In this document: piece by piece, positions 1 to 16,801 of the stretch
How the letters are laid out: each line of letters begins with the position of its first letter
Numbering within the stretch: position 1 is the stretch's first letter
Source: a virus
Taxonomy: Duplodnaviria; Heunggongvirae; Uroviricota; Caudoviricetes
Length of the DNA: 16,801 nt
Direction: 5' to 3' (one strand)
Virus record (IMG/VR): IMGVR_UViG_2531839178_000016
Program-made: the position numbers and the translations under genes
The notes under the pieces: model-generated
Database searches by the model: none
What the model was told of the DNA's origin: nothing
What the model saw: only the letters and a program-made list of their open reading frames with translations

Positions 1-1206
<1,206 letters not shown>

Positions 1207-1419
1207 ATTTTGATATTTTCCAGCACCTCCGCCTTGGAGCTACCGGAGCAGTTGCGCGGGTCATCCGCACCATACAGAGGCGCTGGCATAATGGGAGCCT
1301 TATTTTCAGTAATCAGAAAGGAGGGTAATCGTTCTGGCTGTAACCATAATCATCTGCATGATTCTGGCTTACGTTTTTGCTGCGATTGTCTTTGTCTTTG
1401 AGAGTGGAAACCATATTTG

Positions 1420-1899
1420 CTACAGTTTCTGGTTTCTTTCCTTCAGTTTTTCTTTCAGTGTCTGCCCTGTTTCTGCAATGAATGGAATGCGGATTTCCAT
1501 CTGGTAACTGTCTGCGCCAGTCTTTCTGTTTGTGGTTAATACTTTCTGGAGGACGAGTCCGATTTTCTTTCCGTGAAACTCAGGTGCAACATATTTACTG
1601 ACGGAAACCATATGTTGCGTTAACTGCCCAATTCCTGTGCATCCCATCATGGCGTGAATAATGCTCGCCCCAAATTTATTTTCAGTGCCGTCATTCTTCT
1701 GAACACAAACACTGAGATATTGGATTTTCCGTCCGTCGTCGGATTCTCCAGAAAACTCAATGAATCGGGCACCTTTTTCTGATTGCTTGAGTTCTGCTTC
1801 GGTGATGTTAATGATATGCGCACCCGTTTCGGTAATAAAACCACCTTGTCCGGCGGTCAGTGCTGATTCTTCGTTATAAGTAAAAATCACTTCATCCAT
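1420..1899 (-). CDS. hypothetical phage protein (159 aa), last gene of the exo operon before the IS911 junction
   Basis: ORF start overlaps the exo stop (TAATG) on the same strand. No recognisable family from sequence alone. Confidence 0.5.
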   Translation of the reverse strand: MDEVIFTYNEESALTAGQGGFITETGAHIINITEAELKQSEKGARFIEFSGESDDGRKIQYLSVCVQKNDGTENKFGASIIHAMMGCTGIGQLTQHMVSVSKYVAPEFHGKKIGLVLQKVLTTNRKTGADSYQMEIRIPFIAETGQTLKEKLKERNQKL

Positions 1900-2588
1900 T
1901 AGTTATTAACCCCCCATTGTTCTCCAAATACAAAACCAATTTCCGCCAGTGCTTCGTCCATTTTGTCGATGAACTCCGGCACCATCTCATCAAAACTCGT
2001 CATGTACTTTTCATCCCGCTCGACCACGACATAATGCAGGCCTTCACGCTTCATGCGTGGGTCGTAGTTGGCGAAGTACCAGGCGTCCTTGTCTGTAACC
2101 CACATGCTGAATTGCACCTGGGCCATGTAAGCAGGCTTGATAGCGTCAAAGCCGCCAAGCCGGAACTTCATGAAGTCGCGGGAAGTGAAGGGGCATTTAA
2201 GCTCAAGGCCGTTACCGTCGCTGCATAAACCGTCGGGAGAGCAGGCGGTGCGCATGCTTTCGTCACGAAAAATTATTGGCGTTTCCGAGACGGTAACATC
2301 CGCGATAAATTCGAAGATGGCACGGGCATCATCTTCGTATTGCTTTCCCCATGCGAGCGACTTAGCGTTAACTTCCGGTGCCACGCCGGTACAAACTTCA
2401 GCCAGCAGGGTGTGGAAGTATGAGATTTTTGTATCAGGCCATTTGCTGCCGGAACGTGGCTTTGCTATCACATTGTGAACTTCTGAAGCAGTGATAACAC
2501 CGAGTCTCAGCTTGTGCCATCCATCATCGCCCTGGTCGAGGCTGGTAATATCCACGCCAGTTCGCTGGAGAATAATTTCTGGTGTCAT
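1899..2588 (-). CDS. exo: lambda-type exonuclease (Red-alpha / YqaJ family)
   Basis: 229-aa protein co-linear with recalled lambda Exo (MTP.IILQRTG..., [86 protein letters not shown]). Start overlaps the recT stop (ATGA). Confidence 0.9.
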
Positions 2589-3190
2589 GACACGGCCTCG
2601 CTGCTATTTTCCGTGGTGGCGTGAATTTTCGCTTCCGCCGTGGCCTTGTTTCTGGCAGCTTTCTTTTTGACAAAATCAAGCGTTTTGACAGCTTCTTCCT
2701 GACTGAGATATTCATGTGATGCAATCGTGCGACGGAATGTTTTGGAACATAAGGGAAGCAGGTCATCCCATGTCTTGTTAATTTCGGTGATTGCCTGAGT
2801 GATCTCATTGATAATCTCATCTGATGCGGGAGTGACGTCACGCTCAGGGATGTGATCAGCATTCAGGATGATACCTTCACCGGCCTGAGTGTTCAGGTAG
2901 TCGATAGCTGTATCCAGGCGATCGCGACGGGGCCAGTATTTGCTGGCGCGCTTAACAATGGCTTTTCTGGCCATTTCATCGGGGAAACTATCCCACGGGC
3001 TACTTCCTCCGTTATTTCCGGCTTTGCTGCACGCCCTGATGACCTCGATTTCCCTGTTGCTCATCTCTTCGGTCAGATAGTCGCCTTCGGATGTTTTTAC
3101 GACACAATAACCGCCAATGCGTGCGCCCCTGTCTACGAATGGGTTGTATTTGTGCGTGGGGGCGCAGTCAATACCGTTGGACTCGTAAAT
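2585..3190 (-). pseudogene. recT: recT/bet-type single-strand annealing protein, C-terminal two-thirds (5-prime end removed by IS600 insertion at 3190/3191)
   Basis: The reading frame is open from the IS600 boundary: IYESNGIDCAPTHKYNPFVDRGARIGGYCVVKTSEGDYLTEEMSNREIEVIRACSKAGNNGGSSPWDSFPDEMARKAIVKRASKYWP..., which parallels E. coli RecT (...VTHVYAVARLKDGGTQFEVMTRKQIELVRSLSKAGNNGPW...MAKKTAIRRLFKYLP). The N-terminal part is at 11944..12291. Confidence 0.8.
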
Positions 3191-3254
3191 TGAGGTAGCC
3201 TGAGTTTAACGGACACTCCTTCCTGAAATAGAATGGCATCAGAAGGAGCTAATA

Positions 3255-3517
3255 ATGAGCAGAAAAACCCAACGTTACTCTAAAGAGTTCAAAGCCGAAG
3301 CTGTCAGAACGGTTCTTGAAAATCAACTTTCGATCAGTGAAGGCGCTTCCCGATTATCCCTTCCTGAAGGCACTTTAGGACAATGGGTTACCGCCGCCAG
3401 AAAAGGACTCGGTACTCCTGGTTCCCGCACGGTGGCTGAACTGGAATCTGAAATTCTGCAACTGCGTAAGGCGTTAAATGAAGCTCGCCTTGAGCGAGAT
3501 ATATTAAAAAAAGCAAC
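3255..3517 (+). pseudogene. IS600 orfA, interrupted by IS30 after ...ERDILKKAT
   Basis: MSRKTQRYSKEFKAEAVRTVLENQLSISEGASRLSLPEGTLGQWV... is the IS600 OrfA sequence. The frame reads into the IS30 terminal repeat at 3518. The remaining orfA codons (AYFAQESLKNTR*) resume after IS30 at 4741. Confidence 0.85.
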
Positions 3518-4738
3518 TGTAGATTCAATTGGTCAACGCAACAGTTATGTGAAAACATGGGGTCGCGGAGGTTTTTTGAATGAGACGAACATTTACAGCA
3601 GAGGAAAAAGCCTCTGTTTTTGAACTATGGAAGAACGGAACAGGCTTCAGTGAAATAGCGAATATCCTGGGTTCAAAACCCGGAACGATCTTCACTATGT
3701 TAAGGGATACTGGCGGCATAAAACCCCATGAGCGTAAGCGGGCTGTAGCTCACCTGACACTGTCTGAGCGCGAGGAGATACGAGCTGGTTTGTCAGCCAA
3801 AATGAGCATTCGTGCGATAGCTACTGCGCTGAATCGCAGTCCTTCGACGATCTCACGTGAAGTTCAGCGTAATCGGGGCAGACGCTATTACAAAGCTGTT
3901 GATGCTAATAACCGAGCCAACAGAATGGCGAAAAGGCCAAAACCGTGCTTACTGGATCAAAATTTACCATTGCGAAAGCTTGTTCTGGAAAAGCTGGAGA
4001 TGAAATGGTCTCCAGAGCAAATATCAGGATGGTTAAGGCGAACAAAACCACGTCAAAAAACGCTGCGAATATCACCTGAGACAATTTATAAAACGCTGTA
4101 CTTTCGTAGCCGTGAAGCGCTACACCACCTGAATATACAGCATCTGCGACGGTCGCATAGCCTTCGCCATGGCAGGCGTCATACCCGCAAAGGCGAAAGA
4201 GGTACGATTAACATAGTGAACGGAACACCAATTCACGAACGTTCCCGAAATATCGATAACAGACGCTCTCTGGGGCATTGGGAGGGCGATTTAGTCTCAG
4301 GTACAAAAAACTCTCATATAGCCACACTTGTAGACCGAAAATCACGTTATACGATCATCCTTAGACTCAGGGGCAAAGATTCTGTCTCAGTAAATCAGGC
4401 TCTTACCGACAAATTCCTGAGTTTACCGTCAGAACTCAGAAAATCACTGACATGGGACAGAGGAATGGAACTGGCCAGACATCTAGAATTTACTGTCAGC
4501 ACCGGCGTTAAAGTTTACTTCTGCGATCCTCAGAGTCCTTGGCAGCGGGGAACAAATGAGAACACAAATGGGCTAATTCGGCAGTACTTTCCTAAAAAGA
4601 CATGTCTTGCCCAATATACTCAACATGAACTAGATCTGGTTGCTGCTCAGCTAAACAACAGACCGAGAAAGACACTGAAGTTCAAAACACCGAAAGAGAT
4701 AATTGAAAGGGGTGTTGCATTGACAGATTGAATCTACA
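3518..4738 (+). mobile_element. IS30 (complete, 1221 bp) nested in IS600; flanked by 2-bp duplication AC
   Basis: Terminal repeats TGTAGATTCAATTGGTCAACGC (3518) and GCATTGACAGATTGAATCTACA (ends 4738). AC is present on both flanks (3516..3517 and 4739..4740). Confidence 0.95.
3580..4731 (+). CDS. insI: IS30 transposase (383 aa)
   Basis: Full-length ORF with N-terminal HTH and C-terminal DDE-type catalytic domain, bounded by IS30 inverted repeats. Identical translation to the copy at 13238..14389. Confidence 0.95.
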   Translation: MRRTFTAEEKASVFELWKNGTGFSEIANILGSKPGTIFTMLRDTGGIKPHERKRAVAHLTLSEREEIRAGLSAKMSIRAIATALNRSPSTISREVQRNRGRRYYKAVDANNRANRMAKRPKPCLLDQNLPLRKLVLEKLEMKWSPEQISGWLRRTKPRQKTLRISPETIYKTLYFRSREALHHLNIQHLRRSHSLRHGRRHTRKGERGTINIVNGTPIHERSRNIDNRRSLGHWEGDLVSGTKNSHIATLVDRKSRYTIILRLRGKDSVSVNQALTDKFLSLPSELRKSLTWDRGMELARHLEFTVSTGVKVYFCDPQSPWQRGTNENTNGLIRQYFPKKTCLAQYTQHELDLVAAQLNNRPRKTLKFKTPKEIIERGVALTD

Positions 4739-4815
4739 ACAGCGTATTTTGCACAGGAGTCGCTGAAAAATACGCGTTAATCGAACAATGGCGACAACAA
4801 TTTCCCATTGAAGCG

Positions 4816-5634
4816 ATGTGTCAGGTATTTGGTGTATCCAGGAGCGGTTATTACAACTGGGTACAGCATGAACCCTCAGACAGAAAACAAAGTGATGAGC
4901 GGCTAAAACTGGAGATTAAGGTGGCACATATCCGCACTCGCGAAACATATGGAACCCGGCGGCTCCAGACGGAGCTGGCAGAGAATGGCATCATCGTTGG
5001 TCGTGACCGACTGGCACGTCTTCGTAAGGAGCTAAGGCTACGCTGTAAGCAGAAACGCAAGTTCAGAGCGACTACGAACCCGAACCACAATCTGCCAGTT
5101 GCGCCAAATCTGCTGAACCAGACGTTCGCTCCTACAGCACCAAATCAGGTCTGGGTGGCGGACCTGACGTATGTTGCCACACAGGAGGGATGGTTGTACC
5201 TCGCTGGCATCAAAGATGTTTATACGTGCGAAATTGTCGGCTACGCCATGGGAGAGCGCATGACAAAAGAGCTGACAGGTAAAGCCCTGTTTATGGCGCT
5301 CAGGAGCCAGCGCCCACCTGCCGGGCTAATCCACCACTCTGATCGAGGTTCACAGTACTGCGCATACGATTACCGGGTCATACAGGAGCAGTTTGGTCTG
5401 AAAACATCAATGTCGCGTAAAGGTAACTGTTACGACAACGCTCCGATGGAAAGCTTCTGGGGAACGCTGAAAAATGAGAGCCTGAGCCACTATCGTTTTA
5501 ATAACCGGGATGAAGCCATCTCAGTAATACGGGAATACATTGAGATTTTCTACAATCGTCAGCGTCGTCACTCTCGTCTGGGGAATATCTCCCCGGCAGC
5601 CTTCAGGGAAAAATATCATCAGATGGCTGCTTAA
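4816..5634 (+). CDS. IS600 transposase OrfB frame (DDE integrase); the OrfAB fusion is prevented by the IS30 insertion
   Basis: 272-aa ORF with IS3-family motifs (WVADLTYV, HSDRGSQYCA, GNCYDNAPMESFW). Matches recalled IS600 OrfB. Confidence 0.85.
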   Translation: MCQVFGVSRSGYYNWVQHEPSDRKQSDERLKLEIKVAHIRTRETYGTRRLQTELAENGIIVGRDRLARLRKELRLRCKQKRKFRATTNPNHNLPVAPNLLNQTFAPTAPNQVWVADLTYVATQEGWLYLAGIKDVYTCEIVGYAMGERMTKELTGKALFMALRSQRPPAGLIHHSDRGSQYCAYDYRVIQEQFGLKTSMSRKGNCYDNAPMESFWGTLKNESLSHYRFNNRDEAISVIREYIEIFYNRQRRHSRLGNISPAAFREKYHQMAA

Positions 5635-7136
5635 AAAAAGAACAAATGGTAGTGTCCGCTATTGCCAGTACACCTCATTGACTTGATGAAATTGTGCACT
5701 TCAACCGAGGTTTGCAGCGGCGCGTTACTGAAGCCTTTAGGCCACACCCCGAACTTCTCTTTGTAGGTATGAGCGCACCATCCGTCACTCAGTGGCTTAC
5801 CTGTCGCGTTGCGGTAATTCTGATAGCCCTTGATCTCACTCCACCACCGCTGTTTTTCCTCACGGCTGTATTCGCGTTTCCCTTTGTTTACGCGAGAGAG
5901 TTTTCGATCGCGGTCTGTTGCCACATCATCGCCACCAAGAGGACGAAACCCACATTTGGGACACATGTGTACACCAGCAGGCTTCATGAAGTGGCATTTG
6001 GGGCATTCTCTGGGAAGTTTTTCAGCTTTAACCTCGCCACCGCCAGCAGACGCTTTCATTCCGTCATTTTTGCCCGGCAGTTCGTCATACTCGATATCCT
6101 CGGGGAAACCCAGCCGATGAACCGTGCCAGAATGGTCGAAAATCAACGCACGTTGTTTACCTGGGGCTGTACGTAACGCTCTACCTATGCACTGCAACCA
6201 ACGGATTTCTGATTTTGTCGGACGGGCATAGATCAGGCAGCGAACATCGCTGTCAAATCCCGCAACCAGTACGCCGACGTTGACAATTATTTTGGTCACG
6301 CCCTCTTCAAAACGGCGAATGATGTCCTGTCGTTCATCATGGAGGGTATCTGCCGTCATCACCTCTGCGCCAATACCGGCCTGTAAAAACTCACGGGTAA
6401 CAAAATTCGCATGCGCAACATTCACACAGAAGCAGATCGTCGGCAAATCCTCACCATTCTCAAGCCAGTTGCGAACGATATCGCCAACCAGATCCGAACT
6501 CCCCATGATGGATGCGAGCTGCTCCTCGTTGTAATCCCGTCCAAATACGGTGTTACTGGTTTTTACGCCAGCCAGATCAGGCATTGAGGGGGCAAAAAAC
6601 TCATAATCGCTCAGATCACCACGCTGAATAAGTTCACGAATCGTTGTAGGCTTGATCAGGCATTCGTAGTACTTCCCCATCCAGGCTGCGAACGGGGTAC
6701 CGGAAAGTCCAAGAACCCTGATGTCTCTGTCCCGGATAACCTCAAGTAACGCACGACGCTTCATGTGTGCTTCATCGATGATCAGCAGATCGATGTTGTT
6801 AGGAAACTCACGACGGATCAGCGTGTCGGCACTGGCAATCTGAATCAGTCGTGACGGGTCATAGTTAGGGTGATCACGCCATACAAAACTGATTTCTTCC
6901 CACGGCAAACCGTATTCGGTGAAACGTTCCGCTGTCTGGTTCAGCAGGATGGTGTACGGACAGACAAACATCACTCGCATACCACGTTCAACCATTCCGG
7001 CGGTGACGAATGCTGCAAGACCAGTTTTGCCAGAGCCAGTGGGTGCATACATCAGGTACGTGCGATGCTGTTTCCACTGGTGCCGCAGCTGGTTTAAACC
7101 GCGCTCCTGAGCAAAGTTTGGGATTATTTTCAGCAT
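5631..7136 (-). CDS. SF2 DEAH-box helicase (ResIII-like core plus C-terminal zinc ribbon); native 3-prime end replaced by IS600 sequence from 5677 downward
   Basis: Motif I APTGSGKT, motif II LLIIDEAH, motif III SGTPF, motif VI QCIGRALR, then CPKCHF...CPKCGF zinc ribbon. The last about 15 codons (MRCTGNSGHYHLFFF) lie in the IS600 right end. Start overlaps the stop of the upstream 128-aa gene (ATGCTGA). Confidence 0.85.
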   Translation of the reverse strand: MLKIIPNFAQERGLNQLRHQWKQHRTYLMYAPTGSGKTGLAAFVTAGMVERGMRVMFVCPYTILLNQTAERFTEYGLPWEEISFVWRDHPNYDPSRLIQIASADTLIRREFPNNIDLLIIDEAHMKRRALLEVIRDRDIRVLGLSGTPFAAWMGKYYECLIKPTTIRELIQRGDLSDYEFFAPSMPDLAGVKTSNTVFGRDYNEEQLASIMGSSDLVGDIVRNWLENGEDLPTICFCVNVAHANFVTREFLQAGIGAEVMTADTLHDERQDIIRRFEEGVTKIIVNVGVLVAGFDSDVRCLIYARPTKSEIRWLQCIGRALRTAPGKQRALIFDHSGTVHRLGFPEDIEYDELPGKNDGMKASAGGGEVKAEKLPRECPKCHFMKPAGVHMCPKCGFRPLGGDDVATDRDRKLSRVNKGKREYSREEKQRWWSEIKGYQNYRNATGKPLSDGWCAHTYKEKFGVWPKGFSNAPLQTSVEVHNFIKSMRCTGNSGHYHLFFF

Positions 7137-7516
7137 GACGCCCCCTTGCTACGTGATTTACCCGTTGCCGGGATCACGTCGATCTCATCGCTAACGTATT
7201 GATCCGGATTACGTGAACAGCGCAGAAGCACGATACCAGGAATGCCGTATAGCTTGAGTCTGCGCAGTTTCAGTATTGAACGTGCCCGTGGTGACGCTCT
7301 GTCCACCTCGATCGCGCACCGTTCACCAGATGGGGCAACGACCATGATATCGACGAATCCGCGCTTACCGTTGCCCATATCAACCAGATAATTACGTTCG
7401 ATCGCCAGTCCGGCATCACGCAATTTGGCAGCCAGCACATAATCAAACGTGACCTTGTCTTTTCCGGTGTAGAATTTGTTTCCGAGCAGGCTGATAACCA
7501 CATGTTTGATGAACAT
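7130..7516 (-). CDS. hypothetical protein (128 aa), translationally coupled to the helicase; possible nuclease-like fold (very tentative)
   Basis: ORF with ATG start and coupled stop/start overlap with the helicase. Contains D...E.D spacing (GFVDIMVV...AIEVD) reminiscent of, but not diagnostic for, PD-(D/E)xK nucleases. Confidence 0.5.
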   Translation of the reverse strand: MFIKHVVISLLGNKFYTGKDKVTFDYVLAAKLRDAGLAIERNYLVDMGNGKRGFVDIMVVAPSGERCAIEVDRASPRARSILKLRRLKLYGIPGIVLLRCSRNPDQYVSDEIDVIPATGKSRSKGASC

Positions 7517-7697
7517 GGTACTATTTCCACCGTAATGGTTAGTGTAATAACAATTTCTCCAAAAACCATCTCACCCTATACAGTGATCTACCTAACCTAT
7601 GGAGCTGCCTTCCTCTGGTAGTGCCCTTACAGGCACGGATGTTACAGATCTGCCCCCTTACCCCCTTCTTAGTAAAATTTCAAGCGCAATGGTTTCA

Positions 7698-7714
7698 TGT
7701 GAAATCATTTCACA
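7698..7714. repeat. perfect 17-bp palindrome TGTGAAATCATTTCACA (candidate operator or protein-binding site)
   Basis: Read directly from sequence. Lies in the 220-bp intergenic region between the 93-aa gene and the 128-aa/helicase genes. Confidence 0.6.
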
Positions 7715-7736
7715 AAAATAATCACCTTGATGAGAT

Positions 7737-8018
7737 CTATTCCTTCCGTATCGCTACTGGCGAAAGCATCCAGCCACGGCTGGCTCTCGCGTACTTCTGG
7801 ACATACACCCGTAACCGGGTGTTGGCGCTCCGTCTTGCCCTGTTGCCCTTCCTGAACGATACAGGCTCCTTGTCCCACTCTTCCTGGTACACTCTCGCGT
7901 ACTCTGCTGCAATTTTTACCCTGGTGGTCGGGTCTAGCTGTAACAATTGCTCCTGTATCCAGTCCCGATCAGCATCACAGTACTGATCGGGCATAACCGT
8001 TTTGATTTGCCTGTTCAC
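7737..8018 (-). CDS. hypothetical protein (93 aa) in the cII-equivalent position; GTG start
   Basis: GTG start preceded by GGAGG at 5-nt spacing, 22 bp downstream of the cro-like stop on the same strand. Charged helical-looking sequence, no recognisable family. Confidence 0.5.
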   Translation of the reverse strand: MNRQIKTVMPDQYCDADRDWIQEQLLQLDPTTRVKIAAEYARVYQEEWDKEPVSFRKGNRARRSANTRLRVYVQKYARASRGWMLSPVAIRKE

Positions 8019-8040
8019 TCACACCTCCGATGGAGGGTTA

Positions 8041-8280
8041 TCAGGCTGTTTGCCTTACATGAAGCGGAATACCATCTTCCATGTTTAGGTAGTCATGCGG
8101 GTTTAGTTCATGGGGAGTTACATTCCAGTCTGTAGCTTTTGCCCATTCAATGGCTTTCCGCCCCTGAGGCATGTATCTCCCTGTAATAACCCCACTGACA
8201 AATCCCTGAGAAACTCCAACAATCGCCGCAAAATCGGCTTGTCTGATAGAGCTTTGTCTCAAGTACTCGTCAAGAGTCAT
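8041..8280 (-). CDS. cro: Cro-like small HTH regulator (79 aa)
   Basis: Divergent from cI across a 105-bp region. Size and HTH-like segment (QADFAAIVGVSQGFVSGVITGRYMP) fit Cro/YdaS-type proteins. GGGAGG RBS 6 nt before ATG. Confidence 0.65.
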   Translation of the reverse strand: MTLDEYLRQSSIRQADFAAIVGVSQGFVSGVITGRYMPQGRKAIEWAKATDWNVTPHELNPHDYLNMEDGIPLHVRQTA

Positions 8281-8385
8281 AGAGATCCTCCCATTTCAAT
8301 TTTCCGATATTAGCTTACCTGATTTAAATGTCAATAGGCTAGCTATTTGATAAATATTTGTGTTGCTAATAAAATCGGAGGCACT
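8281..8385. promoter_or_regulatory. cI/cro divergent control region (PR- and PRM-like promoters; operator sites not resolved)
   Basis: Minus strand: -35 TTGACA (8329..8334), 16-bp spacer, -10 TAATAT (8307..8312), driving cro. Plus strand: -35 TTGATA (8347..8352), 17-bp spacer, -10 TAAAAT (8370..8375), giving a nearly leaderless cI transcript. Predicted start sites are about 82 bp apart. Confidence 0.6.
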
Positions 8386-9105
8386 ATGACGAAGAAAATT
8401 ACAATTACTGACAAAGACATCCAGAACGCTGAACGACTGCGCAAAATCTGGGATGAAAAACGGAAACAGCTATCCCTAAGCCAGGAAAAAGCCGCAGATA
8501 TCCTCGGCTTCAAAACGCAGGGGGCTGTTAGTCAGTTATTGAACGCAAAAATTGCGTTAAATACTGAAAATACCCTTAAGTTTGCGGCTTTATTACAGGT
8601 TCCTGCGGAAGAAATTAATCCAGATCTGAGTGATTTGTTACGCAGTATTCGTACCCACACACCGGGAAACAGGCGTAACCTGTTCGAGAAATATTACGAA
8701 TATCCGTTACTCTCCTGCGTACAGGCTGGAGCTTTCTCAATGGATGATTTTTCGTACACCGCAAAGGATGCGATTAAGTGGATCTCCACCACCACAAAAG
8801 CCAGTGACAGGTCGTTCTGGCTGGAGGTCAAGGGGCATTCAATGACCGCGCCGCAGGGTGGTAAACCCAGTTTCCCCGAAGGGATGCTGATACTCGTTGA
8901 CCCTGAGCGGGAGATTGAGGATGGCGATTTTTGCGTGGCCCGAATGAATGGCGATGAATTCACCTTCAAACGATTCATTCGTGAGAGCGGTAAAGCGTAC
9001 CTGGAGCCACTCAACCCACGATTCGACATGATTGAGTGTAACGAAAACTGCCAGTTTGTCGGAAAGGTCATAAAGTCGCAGTGGAATGATGAGACTTTTG
9101 ATTGA
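8386..9105 (+). CDS. cI: CI-type prophage repressor (HTH plus LexA-like S24 autopeptidase domain), 239 aa
   Basis: Co-linear with recalled lambda CI: Ala-Gly cleavage site (CVQAGAFS), catalytic Ser (GHSMTAP) and Lys (FTFKRF), [33 protein letters not shown] at 8386 preceded by GGAG. Confidence 0.9.
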
Positions 9106-9226
9106 ACTCACAGGATGATATCAATAACCTTGCAGGGAGGCTATTTTATTTCCTTTTTCAGCGAAAAATCTCCGAGAACCCTCGCCCAATGCGGGCGGGG
9201 AGCAGTCGCAATCAAGTGAGCCATAA

Positions 9227-9400
9227 ATGAACAAAGACAAATCCTTGACACAACAAGTGGAAGAAATACTTAGCAAGCAAAAAGTTAGCGAGCAAGGAAA
9301 AATGATTCAATCATTAAAGAACATGGGCTTGATCAACAAGCCTGTTTTTACTTTGGCTTATGGACCAGATATTACAACCTGCCAAATGCACCAATAACAA
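9227..9400 (+). CDS. candidate small ORF (58 aa) downstream of cI, ending at the terminator
   Basis: ATG-initiated open frame MNKDKSLTQQVEEILSKQKVSEQGKMIQSLKNMGLINKPVFTLAYGPDITTCQMHQ. Weak RBS. Below the length cutoff of the supplied ORF track. Confidence 0.35.
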
Positions 9401-9426
9401 AACCCGGCCTTGGTGCCGGGTTTTGT
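9399..9426. terminator. bidirectional intrinsic terminator between convergent cI and hicB
   Basis: AAAACCCGGCCTTGGTGCCGGGTTTT: 8-bp GC-rich stem, 6-nt loop, A-run upstream and T-run downstream. Confidence 0.7.
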
Positions 9427-9511
9427 TTGCCTCCTGCTCGCCCCACCATTTACCAGTGCGCCGTAAATTCCCCATTCTTCGGCGGTGAGGATGTCAAAGA
9501 CGAAGGGAACA

Positions 9512-9856
9512 TTAAGCCCCTGTGTGATGGTTGACTTCTTTTTCCAGCGCCTTATTAACAAAGGCGTTCAGTGATAAATCTTCTTCCATCGCCATTTCAG
9601 CGACCCGACGATGCAGTTCTGGATCAAGTCTGACGTTAAACACACCTTTAAACGGGGTATCAGGCTCCTTTCCATCCTCCACACAAGACTGTAAATACAG
9701 CTCAACCGATGTCTTAAACTCCTGTTCCAGTTCAGCTAATGTAGAAGCCTCATAAGTTACCAGGTCTCGAATAAACGCCAGTTTTCCGTACAGGATATTA
9801 TTTTCAAAATCTGGTTCTACTGTACCTAAATATCCTTTATATTTTAGATGATTCAT
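9512..9856 (-). CDS. hicB: HicB-family antitoxin (114 aa)
   Basis: N-terminal HicB fold motifs (YKGYLGTVE...FYGK...IRDLVTYEASTLAELEQEF) and C-terminal ribbon-helix-helix-like tail (FNVRLDPELHRRVAEMAMEEDLSLNAFVNKALE). Start overlaps the hicA stop (ATGA). Confidence 0.8.
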   Translation of the reverse strand: MNHLKYKGYLGTVEPDFENNILYGKLAFIRDLVTYEASTLAELEQEFKTSVELYLQSCVEDGKEPDTPFKGVFNVRLDPELHRRVAEMAMEEDLSLNAFVNKALEKEVNHHTGA

Positions 9857-10107
9857 AATACCCCAGCCTCTTTCAGATTCTGTTTAATCGCTTTCAGCGT
9901 TCCACCTTTAATATAACTTTCTGGATGTGGGCGATGCATTAATATGGTGTGGTTGATTTCAGCATTGAAAAACCGCACTCTTGAGCCCTGCATTTCCTTT
10001 TTGACATATCCCAGAGAGGAAAACAAAACGACCAACTCATCCCATTCAAACGTTTTTTTACTGTTTAAAAACTTTTCCAGTAGCTTATCTGCTTTCCCCA
10101 TACCCAC
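9853..10107 (-). CDS. hicA: HicA-family toxin (mRNA interferase), about 82-84 aa; start at GTG 10107 or ATG 10101
   Basis: C-terminal HicA signature (GSRVRFFNAEINHTILMHRPHPESYIKGGTLKAIKQNLKEAGVL). Toxin-first order with 4-bp overlap onto hicB. Confidence 0.8.
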   Translation of the reverse strand: MGMGKADKLLEKFLNSKKTFEWDELVVLFSSLGYVKKEMQGSRVRFFNAEINHTILMHRPHPESYIKGGTLKAIKQNLKEAGVL

Positions 10108-10136
10108 ATAATCTCATCTTCGCTACATTGCAACTA

Positions 10137-10165
10137 ATTATAGTTACAGGCGATGTTTTTGTCAA
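10137..10165 (-). promoter_or_regulatory. consensus sigma70 promoter for hicAB (-35 TTGACA, 17-bp spacer, -10 TATAAT)
   Basis: Minus strand reads TTGACAAAAACATCGCCTGTAACTATAAT about 30 bp upstream of the hicA start. Confidence 0.65.
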
Positions 10166-10256
10166 AAGCCACCAAGCCCGCTGGGTTCTCTTTGACTGTT
10201 CACTGCTTTTCTTAGTGTTATCAGGGGGTTCCCTCACACCAAATCTAACACAGAGT

Positions 10257-10283
10257 AACCGGCCTCAGCGCCGGTTTTTCTTT
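10257..10283 (+). terminator. orphan intrinsic terminator-like hairpin (plus strand)
   Basis: AACCGGC-CTCAGC-GCCGGTT followed by TTTCTTT. No obvious upstream plus-strand gene. Confidence 0.45.
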
Positions 10284-10730
10284 GCGCATCCTCCATAACT
10301 CACCACCTGCATTATCCTCGCTTATATTTTTTACATAAATAAATTAATCTAAAAATCAATCACATAGATTAAAATTAAATTATTAGTCTTACTATTAACT
10401 GCGATCAGTTGCGCTTATTATATTTTACCCAAGCCAGAAACATCGCGCCCTGACACAGGGCTACATAAATCAGTCGTACGGCGCGACTTAACCCGCCGCA
10501 AAATGCTCTTTAACAATCTGGAGCTTTACAGCGTCAATGACCTGTTTAGACCCCTACACGTAAACGTGCTGTATCATCGGGTGCGATCCGGTCGATGAGA
10601 GAGTATCCCCGCGCGAGAGCGAGAACGGCGTGAGAACGGGCAACACTGGCAGGAAGTTGGCGCTGACCAATACAGGGAATGTTTTGGGGTGCAGGCGGCA
10701 CCGCCAAAGCATTTCCGAGAAAGGACGATA

Positions 10731-10759
10731 TTGACTGCGTGTGATGTCGGGGCTATATT
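10731..10759 (+). promoter_or_regulatory. strong sigma70-type promoter upstream of rha (-35 TTGACT, 17-bp spacer, -10 TATATT)
   Basis: TTGACTGCGTGTGATGTCGGGGCTATATT read directly from the plus strand. Confidence 0.6.
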
Positions 10760-10819
10760 TGGCGAACACCTCATAAAACGGGTGCCGGGATTAGCACCCC
10801 GAAAGTTACTCGAGCGCAT

Positions 10820-10842
10820 AACCGCGCTGAAGCGGTTTTTTT
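10820..10842 (+). terminator. intrinsic terminator inside the rha leader, about 75 nt downstream of the predicted start site
   Basis: AACCGC-GCTGAA-GCGGTT followed by TTTTTTT. Flanked by an outer inverted repeat CGCATA...TATGCG. Confidence 0.6.
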
Positions 10843-11008
10843 ATGCGTAATGCACAGCCACATTCAAATTATGGTGAGGCGTGCGGGGCAGCCGCAAGGC
10901 TGGCCGGGTTCTCGAGTGACCGGTAGTGCTAACCCTGTGCGTCTCACCACCCATGAGATTAGCACCTCTGGTGGTGAGTTAATTAACTTATCACTTGAGG
11001 ATGTCATT

Positions 11009-11647
11009 ATGGCTACTACCCTTTCTCACCCTGACGTAACCATCGAAAATGGTCGCGCCGTCACTACTTCTATTTCGATTGCTGAGTTTTTTGGCAAGCA
11101 GCATCACCATGTTGTTCAGAAAATAGAATCCCTCGAATGCTCTGAGCAATTCTTAACCCGCAACTTTTCGCGGGTTAAATTCGAACACCGAGGCAATACC
11201 TATAACGCCTACCAAATCACCAAAAACGGCTTCGTTTTTCTGGTGATGGGCTTCACCGGCAAAAAAGCAGCTGCATTCAAGGAAGCCTACATTGCTGAAT
11301 TCGATCGCATGGAAAAACAACTATGGGAACAGAAACAACTGGCCCTGTCTTCTCCTGCGATGAATATCAATTTCCCTTTATCGTGGTTTTCAGAGCATCA
11401 CCCCTATGCCACGATGAACTATGTTGATAGAAATACATTGCAGCTTGATACCTCCGTCTTATTCGACATGCCAAGCCCTGCAATGCGCATATTTAATGAA
11501 TTACGTCGTAACGGCTATAACGTCGATGCGGCTGTCGCCGAATTTAACGCCTTCAAGCATCTGACGGAAGAAATGCGCCGTAAATTGCTGGATATTTCCT
11601 GCACATCGGAAAAGTCTTCCCGCTTTGGTTTCAACGTTAATCTTTAA
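11009..11647 (+). CDS. rha: Rha-family phage regulatory protein (212 aa)
   Basis: N-terminal Rha-type region (VTTSISIAEFFGKQHHHVVQKIESLECSEQFLTRNF...YQITKNGFVFLVMGFTGKKAAAFKEAYIAEFDRME). Start ATG at 11009 chosen for GAGG RBS at 8-nt spacing; the longer ORF from 10850 overlaps the structured leader. Confidence 0.75.
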   Translation: MATTLSHPDVTIENGRAVTTSISIAEFFGKQHHHVVQKIESLECSEQFLTRNFSRVKFEHRGNTYNAYQITKNGFVFLVMGFTGKKAAAFKEAYIAEFDRMEKQLWEQKQLALSSPAMNINFPLSWFSEHHPYATMNYVDRNTLQLDTSVLFDMPSPAMRIFNELRRNGYNVDAAVAEFNAFKHLTEEMRRKLLDISCTSEKSSRFGFNVNL

Positions 11648-11655
11648 TTAACCCC

Positions 11656-11678
11656 ATCCCCGATCACATATCGGGGAT
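11656..11678. repeat. 23-bp hairpin palindrome ATCCCCGAT-CACAT-ATCGGGGAT just after rha (weak terminator or binding site)
   Basis: 9-bp perfect stem, 5-nt loop, AT-rich flanks on both sides. The downstream T-run is imperfect. Confidence 0.4.
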
Positions 11679-11717
11679 TAAATTAAATATCTGGATTAAT
11701 TAACCGGAGGATTTGTC

Positions 11718-11783
11718 ATGCTCAAACCTCACTACGGAACCGCATTAGTTTCTCGCGAGGACGTTAAACCCCATTGCTTATGA
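11718..11783 (+). CDS. candidate micro-ORF (21 aa) with strong RBS
   Basis: GGAGG 7 nt upstream of ATG. Stop overlaps the start of the next ORF (ATGA). Confidence 0.3.
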   Translation: MLKPHYGTALVSREDVKPHCL

Positions 11784-11926
11784 GCAGCCTTTTTTTACCC
11801 AAAGAAGCCCAACTGGCACTCACTGGCGAAAAAGCTGAAGAGGCGTACAACGATTATATCTCAGCGATCGCCTATGCTCGGGCGGAAGAAGAATGGGAGA
11901 GAAAATTCTCCCCCTGTCCTTTCTGA
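11780..11926 (+). CDS. candidate small ORF (48 aa) immediately upstream of recT
   Basis: MSSLFLPKEAQLALTGEKAEEAYNDYISAIAYARAEEEWERKFSPCPF. Coupled to the preceding micro-ORF. Occupies the position of gam/kil/cIII-type small genes. Confidence 0.35.
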   Translation: MSSLFLPKEAQLALTGEKAEEAYNDYISAIAYARAEEEWERKFSPCPF

Positions 11927-11943
11927 TTTTCAGGACCAAAAAA

Positions 11944-12291
11944 ATGTTCGATATCGTTGAATTTGTTAAGCAGCAGGAGCGCTTTTTCTGCAAGGCATTA
12001 ACTGAACCGACGCTGACATGGGCGAAGGAAAGTCAGTTTGCAATTCAGCAATTCCAGAAAAATGCCTTTCTGGCTGACACAGCACGGGCAAATCTGCCCA
12101 GCGCACAGAACGCTATCATCAATGTTGCCGCCATCGGCATAACCCTGAACCCGGCCAGCAAGCTGGCGTATCTGGTCCCACGAAAAAAGGCTGTATGCCT
12201 GGATATCAGTTATATGGGGCTTCTGCATCTGGCACAGGTCACAGGAGCCATTCAGTGGGGGCAATGCAAACTTGTTTACGAGAAGGACATT
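11944..12291 (+). pseudogene. recT: recT/bet-type single-strand annealing protein, N-terminal third (3-prime part removed by IS600 at 12291/12292)
   Basis: ...NAIINVAAIGITLNPASKLAYLVPRKKAVCLDISYMGLLHLAQVTGAIQWGQCKLVYEKDI parallels the RecT N-terminal region (SAIVQCSQLGLEPGS...AYLLPFG...GYRGMIDLARRSGQI...VVREGDE). The frame runs into the IS600 end. An alternative start at 11893 is possible. Confidence 0.75.
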
Positions 12292-12334
12292 TGAGGTGTA
12301 CTGGCAATAGCGGACACTACCATTTGTTCTTTTT

Positions 12335-13153
12335 TTAAGCAGCCATCTGATGATATTTTTCCCTGAAGGCTGCCGGGGAGATATTCCCCAGACGAGAGTG
12401 ACGACGCTGACGATTGTAGAAAATCTCAATGTATTCCCGTATTACTGAGATGGCTTCATCCCGGTTATTAAAACGATAGTGGCTCAGGCTCTCATTTTTC
12501 AGCGTTCCCCAGAAGCTTTCCATCGGAGCGTTGTCGTAACAGTTACCTTTACGCGACATTGATGTTTTCAGACCAAACTGCTCCTGTATGACCCGGTAAT
12601 CGTATGCGCAGTACTGTGAACCTCGATCAGAGTGGTGGATTAGCCCGGCAGGTGGGCGCTGGCTCCTGAGCGCCATAAACAGGGCTTTACCTGTCAGCTC
12701 TTTTGTCATGCGCTCTCCCATGGCGTAGCCGACAATTTCGCACGTATAAACATCTTTGATGCCAGCGAGGTACAACCATCCCTCCTGTGTGGCAACATAC
12801 GTCAGGTCCGCCACCCAGACCTGATTTGGTGCTGTAGGAGCGAACGTCTGGTTCAGCAGATTTGGCGCAACTGGCAGATTGTGGTTCGGGTTCGTAGTCG
12901 CTCTGAACTTGCGTTTCTGCTTACAGCGTAGCCTTAGCTCCTTACGAAGACGTGCCAGTCGGTCACGACCAACGATGATGCCATTCTCTGCCAGCTCCGT
13001 CTGGAGCCGCCGGGTTCCATATGTTTCGCGAGTGCGGATATGTGCCACCTTAATCTCCAGTTTTAGCCGCTCATCACTTTGTTTTCTGTCTGAGGGTTCA
13101 TGCTGTACCCAGTTGTAATAACCGCTCCTGGATACACCAAATACCTGACACAT
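12335..13153 (-). CDS. IS600 transposase OrfB frame
   Basis: Translation identical to 4816..5634. Confidence 0.85.
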   Translation of the reverse strand: MCQVFGVSRSGYYNWVQHEPSDRKQSDERLKLEIKVAHIRTRETYGTRRLQTELAENGIIVGRDRLARLRKELRLRCKQKRKFRATTNPNHNLPVAPNLLNQTFAPTAPNQVWVADLTYVATQEGWLYLAGIKDVYTCEIVGYAMGERMTKELTGKALFMALRSQRPPAGLIHHSDRGSQYCAYDYRVIQEQFGLKTSMSRKGNCYDNAPMESFWGTLKNESLSHYRFNNRDEAISVIREYIEIFYNRQRRHSRLGNISPAAFREKYHQMAA

Positions 13154-13230
13154 CGCTTCAATGGGAAATTGTTGTCGCCATTGTTCGATTAACGCGTATT
13201 TTTCAGCGACTCCTGTGCAAAATACGCTGT

Positions 13231-14451
13231 TGTAGATTCAATCTGTCAATGCAACACCCCTTTCAATTATCTCTTTCGGTGTTTTGAACTTCAGTGTCTT
13301 TCTCGGTCTGTTGTTTAGCTGAGCAGCAACCAGATCTAGTTCATGTTGAGTATATTGGGCAAGACATGTCTTTTTAGGAAAGTACTGCCGAATTAGCCCA
13401 TTTGTGTTCTCATTTGTTCCCCGCTGCCAAGGACTCTGAGGATCGCAGAAGTAAACTTTAACGCCGGTGCTGACAGTAAATTCTAGATGTCTGGCCAGTT
13501 CCATTCCTCTGTCCCATGTCAGTGATTTTCTGAGTTCTGACGGTAAACTCAGGAATTTGTCGGTAAGAGCCTGATTTACTGAGACAGAATCTTTGCCCCT
13601 GAGTCTAAGGATGATCGTATAACGTGATTTTCGGTCTACAAGTGTGGCTATATGAGAGTTTTTTGTACCTGAGACTAAATCGCCCTCCCAATGCCCCAGA
13701 GAGCGTCTGTTATCGATATTTCGGGAACGTTCGTGAATTGGTGTTCCGTTCACTATGTTAATCGTACCTCTTTCGCCTTTGCGGGTATGACGCCTGCCAT
13801 GGCGAAGGCTATGCGACCGTCGCAGATGCTGTATATTCAGGTGGTGTAGCGCTTCACGGCTACGAAAGTACAGCGTTTTATAAATTGTCTCAGGTGATAT
13901 TCGCAGCGTTTTTTGACGTGGTTTTGTTCGCCTTAACCATCCTGATATTTGCTCTGGAGACCATTTCATCTCCAGCTTTTCCAGAACAAGCTTTCGCAAT
14001 GGTAAATTTTGATCCAGTAAGCACGGTTTCGGCCTTTTCGCCATTCTGTTGGCTCGGTTATTAGCATCAACAGCTTTGTAATAGCGTCTGCCCCGATTAC
14101 GCTGAACTTCACGTGAGATCGTCGAAGGACTGCGATTCAGCGCAGTAGCTATCGCACGAATGCTCATTTTGGCTGACAAACCAGCTCGTATCTCCTCGCG
14201 CTCAGACAGTGTCAGGTGAGCTACAGCCCGCTTACGCTCATGGGGTTTTATGCCGCCAGTATCCCTTAACATAGTGAAGATCGTTCCGGGTTTTGAACCC
14301 AGGATATTCGCTATTTCACTGAAGCCTGTTCCGTTCTTCCATAGTTCAAAAACAGAGGCTTTTTCCTCTGCTGTAAATGTTCGTCTCATTCAAAAAACCT
14401 CCGCGACCCCATGTTTTCACATAACTGTTGCGTTGACCAATTGAATCTACA
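13231..14451 (-). mobile_element. IS30 (complete, 1221 bp) nested in IS600 copy 2
   Basis: Same terminal repeats as 3518..4738. Same right-hand junction sequence (ACAGCGTATT) as copy 1. Confidence 0.95.
13238..14389 (-). CDS. insI: IS30 transposase (383 aa)
   Basis: Translation identical to 3580..4731. Confidence 0.95.
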   Translation of the reverse strand: MRRTFTAEEKASVFELWKNGTGFSEIANILGSKPGTIFTMLRDTGGIKPHERKRAVAHLTLSEREEIRAGLSAKMSIRAIATALNRSPSTISREVQRNRGRRYYKAVDANNRANRMAKRPKPCLLDQNLPLRKLVLEKLEMKWSPEQISGWLRRTKPRQKTLRISPETIYKTLYFRSREALHHLNIQHLRRSHSLRHGRRHTRKGERGTINIVNGTPIHERSRNIDNRRSLGHWEGDLVSGTKNSHIATLVDRKSRYTIILRLRGKDSVSVNQALTDKFLSLPSELRKSLTWDRGMELARHLEFTVSTGVKVYFCDPQSPWQRGTNENTNGLIRQYFPKKTCLAQYTQHELDLVAAQLNNRPRKTLKFKTPKEIIERGVALTD

Positions 14452-14659
14452 GTTGCAGAATTTCAGATTCCAGTTCAGCCACCGTGCGGGAACCAGGAGT
14501 ACCGAGTCCTTTTCTGGCGGCGGTAACCCATTGTCCTAAAGTGCCTTCAGGAAGGGATAATCGGGAAGCGCCTTCACTGATCGAAAGTTGATTTTCAAGA
14601 ACCGTTCTGACAGCTTCGGCTTTGAACTCTTTAGAGTAACGTTGGGTTTTTCTGCTCAT
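14452..14659 (-). pseudogene. IS600 orfA fragment, shortened by a 55-bp deletion next to the IS30 IRL
   Basis: OrfA reads MSRKTQ...ELESEILQL and then meets IS30. Copy 1 has a further 18 codons (RKALNEARLERDILKKAT) before IS30. Confidence 0.8.
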
Positions 14660-14859
14660 TATTAGCTCCTTCTGATGCCATTCTATTTCAGGAAGGAGTG
14701 TCCGTTAAACTCAGGCTACCTCAAAGGACCGAACAAACGAAACAGCAATGAGACCGTTGCGAAAAGCGACAATAGACAAATTCCCTGAATATATCGACCC
14801 GCGCCTGCGTAATTACCGCTCACGCTATGGCGCTATCAGTAATGACTGAGGAATTTACC

Positions 14860-15621
14860 ATGAGAGGACTTGCATACAATCCCGGCATTCTTCCGGCAGA
14901 AATGATTATTCGCCAACGCGTAAAGCCAATGCCATCGAGAGAGGAATTGCTTAAGAGAAATTCTTTTCCGTCAGTGAATCAAAAACAAATATCTGAATGC
15001 TATGTGGCGCAAAGGAGGCAAACAGTGAGCGAAATTGACTATCAGGCACTGCGTGAAAAGGCAGAGAAAGCAACGTGGGGTGTGTGGTCGCTCGAATATG
15101 GAGAGGAGAAACTTGATGCTGATGATGCGCTAATTCACCGTGAAGTTGTTGGATATCTTCCTATTTGCAGAATTGAAGGAGCGCATCCTGAAAGCGGTTT
15201 CGATGAAGATTTCCAAATGGAACAGCAGGCCAATGCTGAATTCATCGCCGCAGCCAATCCGGCTACTGTGCTGACACTGCTGAGCGAGCTGGAAACAGCA
15301 AAAAAGCGCATAGCAGAACTGGAAGCCAAACCTGTAAGCCAGACTTACAAGTTGAATGAGATGTCGGGCAACTCTCCGGTAATTCCGGATGGTTGGATAA
15401 GCTGTAGTGATCGAATGCCTGAAAAGGGCCAGAACGTACTTATTTCGGTGAATTTCGATAGCTCTCTGGTTGAACCGCTAATATGCTCCGCACGCTATAC
15501 CGGAGGTACATTCCGGCGTGGAGATGTAACGGTTAAGCCAGGTAATGGTATTGAACAGGCAACCCACTGGATAGACTGGCCCCCTGAATCTCCAGACAAC
15601 CAGTATCACTTAAATAAGTGA
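14860..15621 (+). CDS. Ead/Ea22-like phage protein with C-terminal DUF551-like domain; native C-terminus replaced by IS2-derived codons
   Basis: Ea22-like motifs ([40 protein letters not shown]) then a DUF551-like segment ([20 protein letters not shown]...ATHW). IS2 begins at 15573, so the last 16 codons are IS-derived. GAGGA RBS before ATG 14860; alternative start at 14827. Confidence 0.6.
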
Positions 15622-15762
15622 TAGTCTTAATACTAGTTTTTAGACTAGTCATTGGAGTACAGATGATTGATGTCTTAGGGCCGGAGAAACGCAGACGGCG
15701 TACCACACAGGAAAAGATCGCAATTGTTCAGCAGAGCTTTGAACCGGGGATGACGGTCTCCC
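15573..15762 (+). mobile_element. IS2 left end (190 bp), interrupted by an IS629-like element
   Basis: TAGACTGGCCCCCTGAATCTCCAGACAACC... matches the recalled IS2 left terminal region. Followed by the insC start [34 protein letters not shown]. Confidence 0.85.
15663..15762 (+). pseudogene. insC: IS2 orfA (InsC) N-terminal fragment, 33 codons
   Basis: Matches the recalled IS2 InsC N-terminus and then diverges at 15763, where the IS629 terminal repeat TGAACCGCCCCGGGTTTCCTGG begins. Confidence 0.85.
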
Positions 15763-15804
15763 TGAACCGCCCCGGGTTTCCTGGAGAGTGTTTTATCTGT
15801 GAAC

Positions 15805-16687
<883 letters not shown>

Positions 16688-16691
<4 letters not shown>

Positions 16692-16801
16692 TTTTTCCAG
16701 AGGCGGTCGAACTCCGCCTTCGCAAAATAAGCGGAAGCCTGGCGAAGGATATCGTTACTGCGGCGCAGTTCACGATTTTCACGCTCCAGCTCTTTCAGAC
16801 G
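16688..16801 (-). CDS. IS629 orfA C-terminal part (partial at window edge)
   Basis: Minus-strand translation ...[37 protein letters not shown] with the A-run frameshift motif (GGAAAAAATGATG) at the orfA/orfB overlap. Confidence 0.8.

Follow-up and report, generated by a model that had tools for sequence, protein, structure and literature searches.

The window considered here, 16,801 nucleotides (nt) of viral DNA (IMG/VR record IMGVR_UViG_2531839178_000016), is the entire 16.8-kb draft-assembly contig AKNA01000038.1 in reverse orientation. It carries the recombination gene recT in two pieces on opposite strands, each adjoining the end of a composite of two insertion sequences (ISs), IS600 and IS30, together with two separated fragments of the anti-RecBCD gene abc2 and a truncated gene for a DEAD/DEAH-box replication helicase; an immunity/replication segment lies between the two composites (Table 1). 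Our analysis is based on DNA-level comparison, in which relatives more than 99% identical to the window were decisive, and on Pfam profiles, with three comparison loci as references for gene order: a lysogen of the Shiga toxin (Stx) phage PA8 (Stx2 phage; E. coli WG5::PA8, L001) and an E. coli prophage with the same cI/hicAB region as the window (L002), both intact relatives, and QWSH01000121.1 (L019), which holds the same prophage at 99.6-99.8% identity with the recT IS site empty and serves as the control.

The two recT pieces are the halves of one gene. Joining 11944..12291 to the reverse complement of 2585..3187 yields an in-frame open reading frame (ORF) of 951 nt and 316 amino acids (aa), reading ...VYEKDI-YESNGIDCAPTHKY..., which equals the length annotated for recT in L001 and L002. 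The joined product gives one Pfam RecT match (PF03837, E=1.7e-24, 86.9 bits against a cut-off of 24) in a single stretch over residues 31-204, crossing the junction at residue 116/117. In the intact relatives the pieces lie side by side: window stretches 1359..3190 and 11771..12292 adjoin in L001 and L002, overlapping by the duplicated triplet and one chance base, and the pieces abut with identities of 96.8-99.2% in L001, 98-98.7% in L002 and 99.8% in L019, an abutment far beyond chance. The coordinates of the split gene, its co-linearity across the junction and its contiguity in intact prophages, all put forward in the first-pass annotation of this DNA, are borne out. At the empty site of L019, ...GAGAAGGACATTTACGAGTCC... 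(in shorter form ...GGACATTTACGAG...), a single ATT is present, and the window has two copies, its recT ends reading ...GGACATT up to one IS and ATTTACGAG... after the other; for this reason it is established that one 2.5-kb IS600::IS30 composite inserted in recT, where it separated codon 116 from codon 117 and left ATT (AAT in IS orientation) duplicated; this is the single insertion with a 3-bp AAT duplication that had been proposed. The recT gene of L019 (8015..8965) has a frameshift of its own about two-thirds along the gene, and the recombination module was therefore already decaying independently of the IS insertion. The junction between the recT 3' part and IS600 has no exact match in species-representative genome contigs, a set of representatives that does not include the window's lineage.

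Table 1. Features of the window (positions are window coordinates; a point marks a segment given without strand)
Feature	Position	Strand	Remarks
IS30 5' end, truncated by contig end	1..291	-	Inside IS911, flipped relative to canonical IS911::IS30; 99.3% identical to the IS30 of L003
IS911 3' part (orfB')	292..1207	+	Right end ...GACCACTTCA at 1207; 99.5% identical to annotated IS911 of E. coli ECONIH1
abc2 (anti-RecBCD), nt 1-82	1208..1289	-	Adjoins IS911 right end, with the IS911 target duplication (AAA) at 1208..1210
159-aa ORF	1420..1899	-	Homologous to, but shorter than, the 195-aa gene that follows exo in intact phages
exo (YqaJ / lambda exonuclease family)	1899..2588	-	Pfam PF09588, 7e-28; RefSeq annotation of a 99.2%-identical copy
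recT 3' part (codons 117-316)	2585..3190	-	Carries one target-duplication copy, AAT, at 3188..3190
Composite copy 1, 2487 bp	3191..5677	+	IS600 5' part 3191..3517, IS30 3518..4738, IS600 3' part 4739..5677
Immunity/replication segment between composites	5678..12291	.	Helicase', 128-aa gene, 93-aa gene, cro, cI, hicBA, rha, gamL remnant, recT 5' part; collinear with L019 1145..8363 (99.6-99.8%) and with L002; Pfam
DEAD/DEAH-box replication helicase, truncated	5678..7136	-	Pfam ResIII, Helicase_C, DEAD; cut after codon 486 by the IS600 right end of copy 1
cro	8041..8280	-	
cI	8347..9105	+	
hicBA	9512..10107	-	
rha	10850..11647	+	
recT 5' part (codons 1-116)	11944..12291	+	Carries the other target-duplication copy, ATT (AAT in IS orientation), at 12289..12291
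Composite copy 2, 2432 bp	12292..14723	-	IS600 3' part 12292..13230, IS30 13231..14451, IS600 5' part 14452..14723
abc2, nt 172-297 (codons 58-98)	14724..14849	+	Adjoins IS600 left end of copy 2; target triplet AAG at 14724..14726 (CTT in IS orientation)
DUF2737 + Ead/Ea22 + DUF551, fused ORF	14827..15621	+	Pfam; gene calls in L015 and L016
IS629/IS1203-like IS3-family element, orfB frameshifted	15763..16801 (contig end)	-	End TGAACCGCCCCGG at 15763

The elements at these junctions had been called plain IS600 and prove to be IS600::IS30 composites, each containing a complete 1221-bp IS30. Both copies start with TGAGGTAGCC (at 3191 in copy 1) and end with GTACACCTCA (the last bases, CACCTCA, falling at 5677), forming terminal TG...CA inverted repeats; the 2487 bp of copy 1 are the sum of 1264 bp of IS600, 1221 bp of IS30 and a 2-bp duplication, and over that full length the copy is 99.7% identical to a RefSeq-annotated IS600 interrupted by IS30 in E. 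coli ECONIH1. Near-identity, terminal repeats and the 3-bp target duplication (the AAT pair) all assign the outer element to IS600, and the plain, uninterrupted IS600 of L017 also has a 3-bp duplication. Neither copy has intact orfA and orfB: the orfA (HTH_Tnp_1) and orfB (rve) parts are separated by IS30, inserted 6 nt past the A7G frameshift motif, and both copies are therefore non-autonomous. The inner elements are IS30 by length, by a 383-aa ORF in each, by terminal inverted repeats of about 26 bp (ends TGTAGATTCAATTGGTCAACGCAACA and TGTTGCATTGACAGATTGAATCTACA) and by AC on both sides (3516..3517 and 4739..4740 in copy 1), and RefSeq calls a 99.4-99.7%-identical copy IS30. Copy 2 is without 55 bp of the IS600 5' part beside the IS30 left end (14452..14456, against 3463..3517 in copy 1), a loss bounded by two GCAACTG repeats (at 3458 and 3513 of copy 1); otherwise the copies differ by one single-nucleotide polymorphism (14030 G against 3939 A). 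The orthologue of copy 2 in PSSP01000001.1 (L006) has no such loss, but its IS30 is flipped. The composite is found at several sites in the window's lineage, with plain IS600 in relatives such as L017, and was probably mobilised by a transposase supplied in trans; of 5426 complete E. coli genomes, 1276 contain the junction of the IS600 5' part with IS30, and in K-12, which is one of these, it lies beside fec with an IS911 fragment.

The outer ends of the composites lie in two further genes. Copy 1 interrupts the helicase, whose ORF (5631..7136) takes its last 15 codons from the IS, 486 of 506 codons being phage-derived; in L019 the helicase is intact at 506 aa and has a DUF7146 primase downstream. 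Copy 2 adjoins at its IS600 left end not the remainder of the helicase but abc2 nt 172-297, and a reading of 14724 onwards as a continuation of helicase or primase was rejected, that sequence being without similarity to L001 from 22474 on or to L002 upstream of 5998. The first 82 nt of abc2 stand at the other end of the window, directly downstream of exo and the 159-aa ORF, and are 86% identical to the abc2 of L004; the 3' fragment is 91.6% identical to L004 abc2 and 100% identical to L015 9701..9877, a stretch with an unoccupied IS600 site; in the window the DUF2737/Ead/DUF551 genes come after this fragment. L015 runs from the IS911 left end into abc2 at nt 80 and on, uninterrupted, through the IS600 site. 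The window's 5' fragment plus L015 9612..9826, with one AAA removed, makes a 297-nt gene for a 98-aa Abc2 collinear with that of L004. Because L015 bridges the two fragments and yields the full protein, abc2 has taken two hits, one from IS911 at nt 82 (duplication AAA) and one from IS600 at nt 172-174 (AAG). IS911 was already in place before the IS600 events. The 89 nt of abc2 between the two sites are absent from the window.

What moved becomes plain when the window is aligned to L019: 5675..12292 and 14965..16480 run plus/plus, and 1593..3190 is inverted and displaced. The block that comprises the recT 3' part, exo, the homologue of the 195-aa gene (orf195), the abc2 5' part and IS911::IS30 (window 1..3190) corresponds exactly to the gap between the recT 5' part and the abc2 3' part, and is found today in inverted orientation across the immunity/replication segment, past the end of the helicase. 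This matches a three-breakpoint rearrangement: the block ends at recT codon 117 and at abc2 nt 82 (with IS911), and the neighbours left behind are recT codon 116 and abc2 nt 172. In IS orientation the flanks read AAT/copy 1/TTG and CTT/copy 2/AAT. The AAT pair is contiguous in L019 and fits a simple inversion; TTG and CTT do not, mapping to different genes (helicase and abc2) about 9 kb apart in the ancestral order, and they mismatch because the composite copies are recombinants. The first-pass annotation was right that this pair is no clean duplication, and the history it had left open is explained by the third breakpoint in abc2. All three reference loci show the restored gene order that it had deduced, with rha, gam, recT, exo and cI on one strand and cro, the 93-aa gene, the 128-aa gene and the helicase on the other.

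With helicase 3' end/helicase', recT 5' part/recT 3' part and abc2 middle/abc2 3' part as the ancestral adjacencies, the observed order is two double-cut-and-join steps away, by any of three equally short orders of events, each of which is compatible with the IS orientations inferred from the four junctions. We consider it likely from these comparisons that the window preserves, scrambled by ISs, what remains of the early region of a lambdoid, Stx-phage-like prophage from a lineage of the Shigella dysenteriae type, and that three IS600 sites (in the helicase, recT and abc2) and two exchanges were needed to produce its present order. The composite inserted once in recT; further IS600 copies would have lain in the helicase (after codon 486) and in abc2 (at nt 172), and two reciprocal exchanges between IS600::IS30 copies at these three sites would then have given the present order. 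In history (a), the segment 5678..12291 would be inverted first and a larger inversion would follow; in history (b), the larger block would be inverted first and 5678..12291 afterwards; and in history (c), the block would be excised as an IS-bearing circle between the recT and abc2 copies, as direct repeats, and reintegrated at the helicase copy. RecA-dependent homologous recombination between the 2.4-kb repeats, which are more than 99.9% identical, is the most likely mechanism, and a separation of the recT halves by recombination involving inverted IS copies, as first suggested, is supported. IS600-mediated and other IS-mediated inversions, including an inversion followed by re-inversion, have been documented in Shigella (PMC1550401). 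A later event at the IS911 end has probably linked the left side to another prophage. Each of the three orders predicts a third recombinant IS600, with the helicase 3' end on one side (GGCATAGGCAATGATCTTTG running into the IS600 left end, TGAGGTAGCC) and abc2 nt 83-171 on the other (the IS600 right end, TACACCTCA, running into nt 171-83, CTTCTCCTGTTTTAGCGCGAG).

Several observations weigh against this reconstruction. Neither junction of the predicted third hybrid IS600 was present in any locus examined, a search that extended to these loci and not to whole genomes, and among the strains examined there was no intermediate, that is, neither an IS in recT with contiguous halves nor a simple IS600 in the helicase. 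The IS911 left end joins a wrbA-rut-type prophage in complete genomes, and at least one further IS911-associated event must therefore be assumed. Homologous recombination and transposase action leave the same flanks, and sequence cannot separate them. Finally, a second contig of the same draft assembly, AKNA01000035.1 (L020), carries the junction of the abc2 3' part with IS600 in another context, which makes the copy number of this junction in the window's strain uncertain.

Among the alternatives, we regard history (c), excision and recapture without any inversion, as possible but unlikely. The recT and abc2 copies, inferred to be direct, would delete the intervening block, and recapture at the oppositely oriented helicase copy would produce exactly the four observed junctions; the flanks of copy 2, with recT on one side and abc2 on the other, are those expected of the deletion product. 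However, a non-replicating circle would have to be recaptured immediately, whereas two inversions give a stable chromosome at each step. That intramolecular transposition from an IS600 or IS30 end made one or both of the new joints, duplicating the element, seems to us improbable. The joints do fall exactly at IS600 ends, and IS30 behaves here in a transposase-like way, with exact in-place flips between strains and a 55-bp deletion beside an IS30 end. IS3-family elements transpose by a copy-out/paste-in route through circles, which does not normally give replicative inversions; the disrupted orfAB of the composite would need a transposase in trans, and a flank pattern shared with homologous recombination offers nothing specific in support.

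Marginally less probable again is the history of the first-pass annotation, in which IS600 inserted in recT, an inverted copy lay in the helicase, and one exchange inverted 5678..12291 (about 6.6 kb), the mismatch at the other pair being unrelated. The AAT/AAT flanks, the recT join and the more than 99.9% identity of the inverted copies all agree with it, and two of the three shortest histories formally include such an inversion. As a complete account, however, it is already contradicted, two exchanges and three sites being needed: undoing it leaves the helicase joined through an IS to the abc2 3' part, which is then in the wrong orientation and place; the abc2 5' part sits at the far end of the block with the recT 3' part; and relative to L019 the supposedly inverted segment and the right flank are collinear, only 1593..3190 being inverted. 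Least credible by far is an assembly artefact, in which short reads could not orient a segment between 2.4-kb inverted repeats: the window is a whole draft contig, in other drafts the assembly stops at these IS copies, with a contig of 7.3 kb as the result, and an extra base in an IS30 end and the competing contig L020 indicate consensus problems in this assembly, but contigs of 5.04 Mb (CP027027.1), 5.10 Mb (PSSP01000001.1) and 2.72 Mb (UYIS01000022.1) from three other strains share the identical layout, recT 3' part (-)/composite/helicase' (-)...recT 5' part (+)/IS, at about 99.9% identity. The opposite orientation occurs in none of the carriers of the recT 5'-part junction that were examined, the window and these three assemblies all being alike, and flip-flopping of the segment was thus not seen among them.

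The left side of the displaced block is an inter-locus joint to a different prophage, of the wrbA-rut type. In complete genomes a different phage-like element lies beyond the IS911 left end (L006 18402..21506; L031), with a truncated gene annotated 'transposase', an HNH endonuclease gene and small ORFs, and E. coli relatives carry this element between wrbA and ymdF/rut. The idea that the complete genomes have another, third IS600 5' part past the left IS30 was considered and rejected, a scan having found no IS600 ends there; the 122/116-aa helix-turn-helix ORF at that place is IS911 orfA. The terminal repeat of the left IS30 (265..291) has one extra G in the draft contig only (GACCAGATTG, against GACCAATTG in S. 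dysenteriae 1012, L007, and in L008). It was rejected as a hybrid of left and right repeats, L007 and L008 having a clean flipped end there, and the extra G is more likely a consensus error or a mixture of left- and right-end reads than a real hybrid end.

The right flank continues in complete genomes with ORF6N genes, xis, int and then ipaH, which is the native end of the prophage. The IS629/IS1203-like element is 93.6% identical to an annotated IS3-family element in L002, and since the empty-site strain L019 shares the same insertion, it is older than the IS600 events. It interrupts a coding fragment (15664..15762) that we take to resemble the start of an IS66-family orfA. DUF2737 and Ead/DUF551 form one 264-aa ORF in the window and elsewhere are overlapping separate genes of 55 and 198 aa; the fusion is likely due to a 1-bp indel or a draft sequencing error, and a database look-up returned no record for the 264-aa ORF and did return one for the 198-aa Ead product. 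In strain 1012 (L007 4795..5548), IS1 joins a truncated rha to the ORF6N genes near int, replacing everything from the 3' part of rha through the recT 5' part, copy 2 and the Ead region.

Elsewhere in the window, the 159-aa ORF is collinear with L001 11955..12542 and L002 15170..15757. An intact-looking hicA/hicB toxin-antitoxin pair stands between cI and rha on the minus strand, as it also does in the E. coli prophage L002. A 598-bp deletion at 11771, private to the window contig in comparison with L019 and the complete genomes, has removed kilR, a 93-aa gene and the 5' part of gamL. As to the host, the helicase junction of the window recurs identically in AAMJ02000007.1; AAMJ00000000 is S. 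dysenteriae 1012, serotype 4, and the host lineage is for this reason placed in a S. dysenteriae-type clade.

The nested IS30 copies show a behaviour of their own, which we followed by comparing window 1..291 and 13231..14451 with L005, L006, L007, L008 and L020. In both IS600 copies and in IS911, IS30 occupies a homologous site only a few bases to the 3' side of the A-rich -1 frameshift motif and is bordered by an AC duplication each time. In some strains only, it is exactly inverted in place inside IS911 or IS600, the ends being clean and the AC retained. The outer pair of IS30 copies is mutually parallel in every case, and the roughly 15 kb between them stays collinear. Flipping by homologous exchange between IS30 copies was rejected, such an exchange leaving every junction of repeat and flank as it was; a pair of nested inversions by way of the half-IS911 repeats on either side would fit L005 and L008, but not obviously L006 and the window. 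In L020, 9427..10981 repeats window 14450..16005 (the flank with the abc2 3' part, DUF2737, Ead and IS629) with one mismatch and one gap, and a flipped IS30 connects it there to another IS600 5' part and the rha region of a different phage; this reflects either a second genomic copy or a mixed culture. That the nested copies are still active, flipping in place under the action of a transposase or re-inserting at a hot spot 3' of the frameshift motif, is a speculative proposal to which we give little weight. If it held, the region would be a natural example of one IS flipping repeatedly and in a coordinated way inside another, and the 2.4-kb repeats around the immunity segment would switch between fully inverted and partly direct homology.

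Taken as a whole, the finding is ordinary multi-step, IS-driven prophage decay, already known in kind; it implies no new mechanism or gene function and matters little beyond annotation. As its result, recT, abc2 and the helicase, which has lost its C-terminus, are inactivated, the PL operon is cut and the prophage is defective. We suggest the following for annotation and use:

(i) Annotation should treat the recT, abc2 and helicase pieces as pseudogene fragments, disrupted by ISs and all belonging to one prophage, instead of as separate genes, and the 'IS600' copies as IS600::IS30 composites.

(ii) A single matching target duplication out of two should be read as a sign of a multi-breakpoint history and not of a simple inversion.

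(iii) With its empty-site controls, the locus offers a clean worked example in which multi-step recombination among a few IS copies has scrambled a Shigella prophage.

Inversions and translocations mediated by ISs belong to the textbook picture of Shigella genomes. Between S. flexneri 5b and 2a, one inversion has been attributed to IS600 and one region has been inverted and then re-inverted (PMC1550401). The window resembles such cases in that an inverted, high-copy IS brackets the segment, the joints lie at IS ends, target duplications are swapped and events are nested; it differs in scale, the event spanning 2-15 kb within one prophage remnant, and in that the recombining units are IS600::IS30 composites. 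The literature searched held no description of this particular rearrangement. The PA8-type module has the same order of rha, small ORFs, gamL, recT of 951 nt, exo and the 195-aa gene, with 97-99% DNA identity in recT and exo, whereas in the window recT is split, exo is cut off from the promoter side and abc2, which PA8 is without, follows the module. The IS600'-IS30-IS911' cluster beside fec in K-12 and ECONIH1 shares the identical position of IS30 in IS600 and IS911 and the AC duplication; it is a single chromosomal locus in E. coli, whereas the composite occupies several sites in the window's Shigella lineage, two of them in one prophage. In IS26-type translocatable units, an IS-flanked segment is excised and reintegrated. 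The likeness to the window is that directly repeated ISs bound a segment, which moves beside another copy and leaves one IS at the donor; the difference is that the driver here would be homologous recombination between IS3-family composites and not the IS26 transposase.

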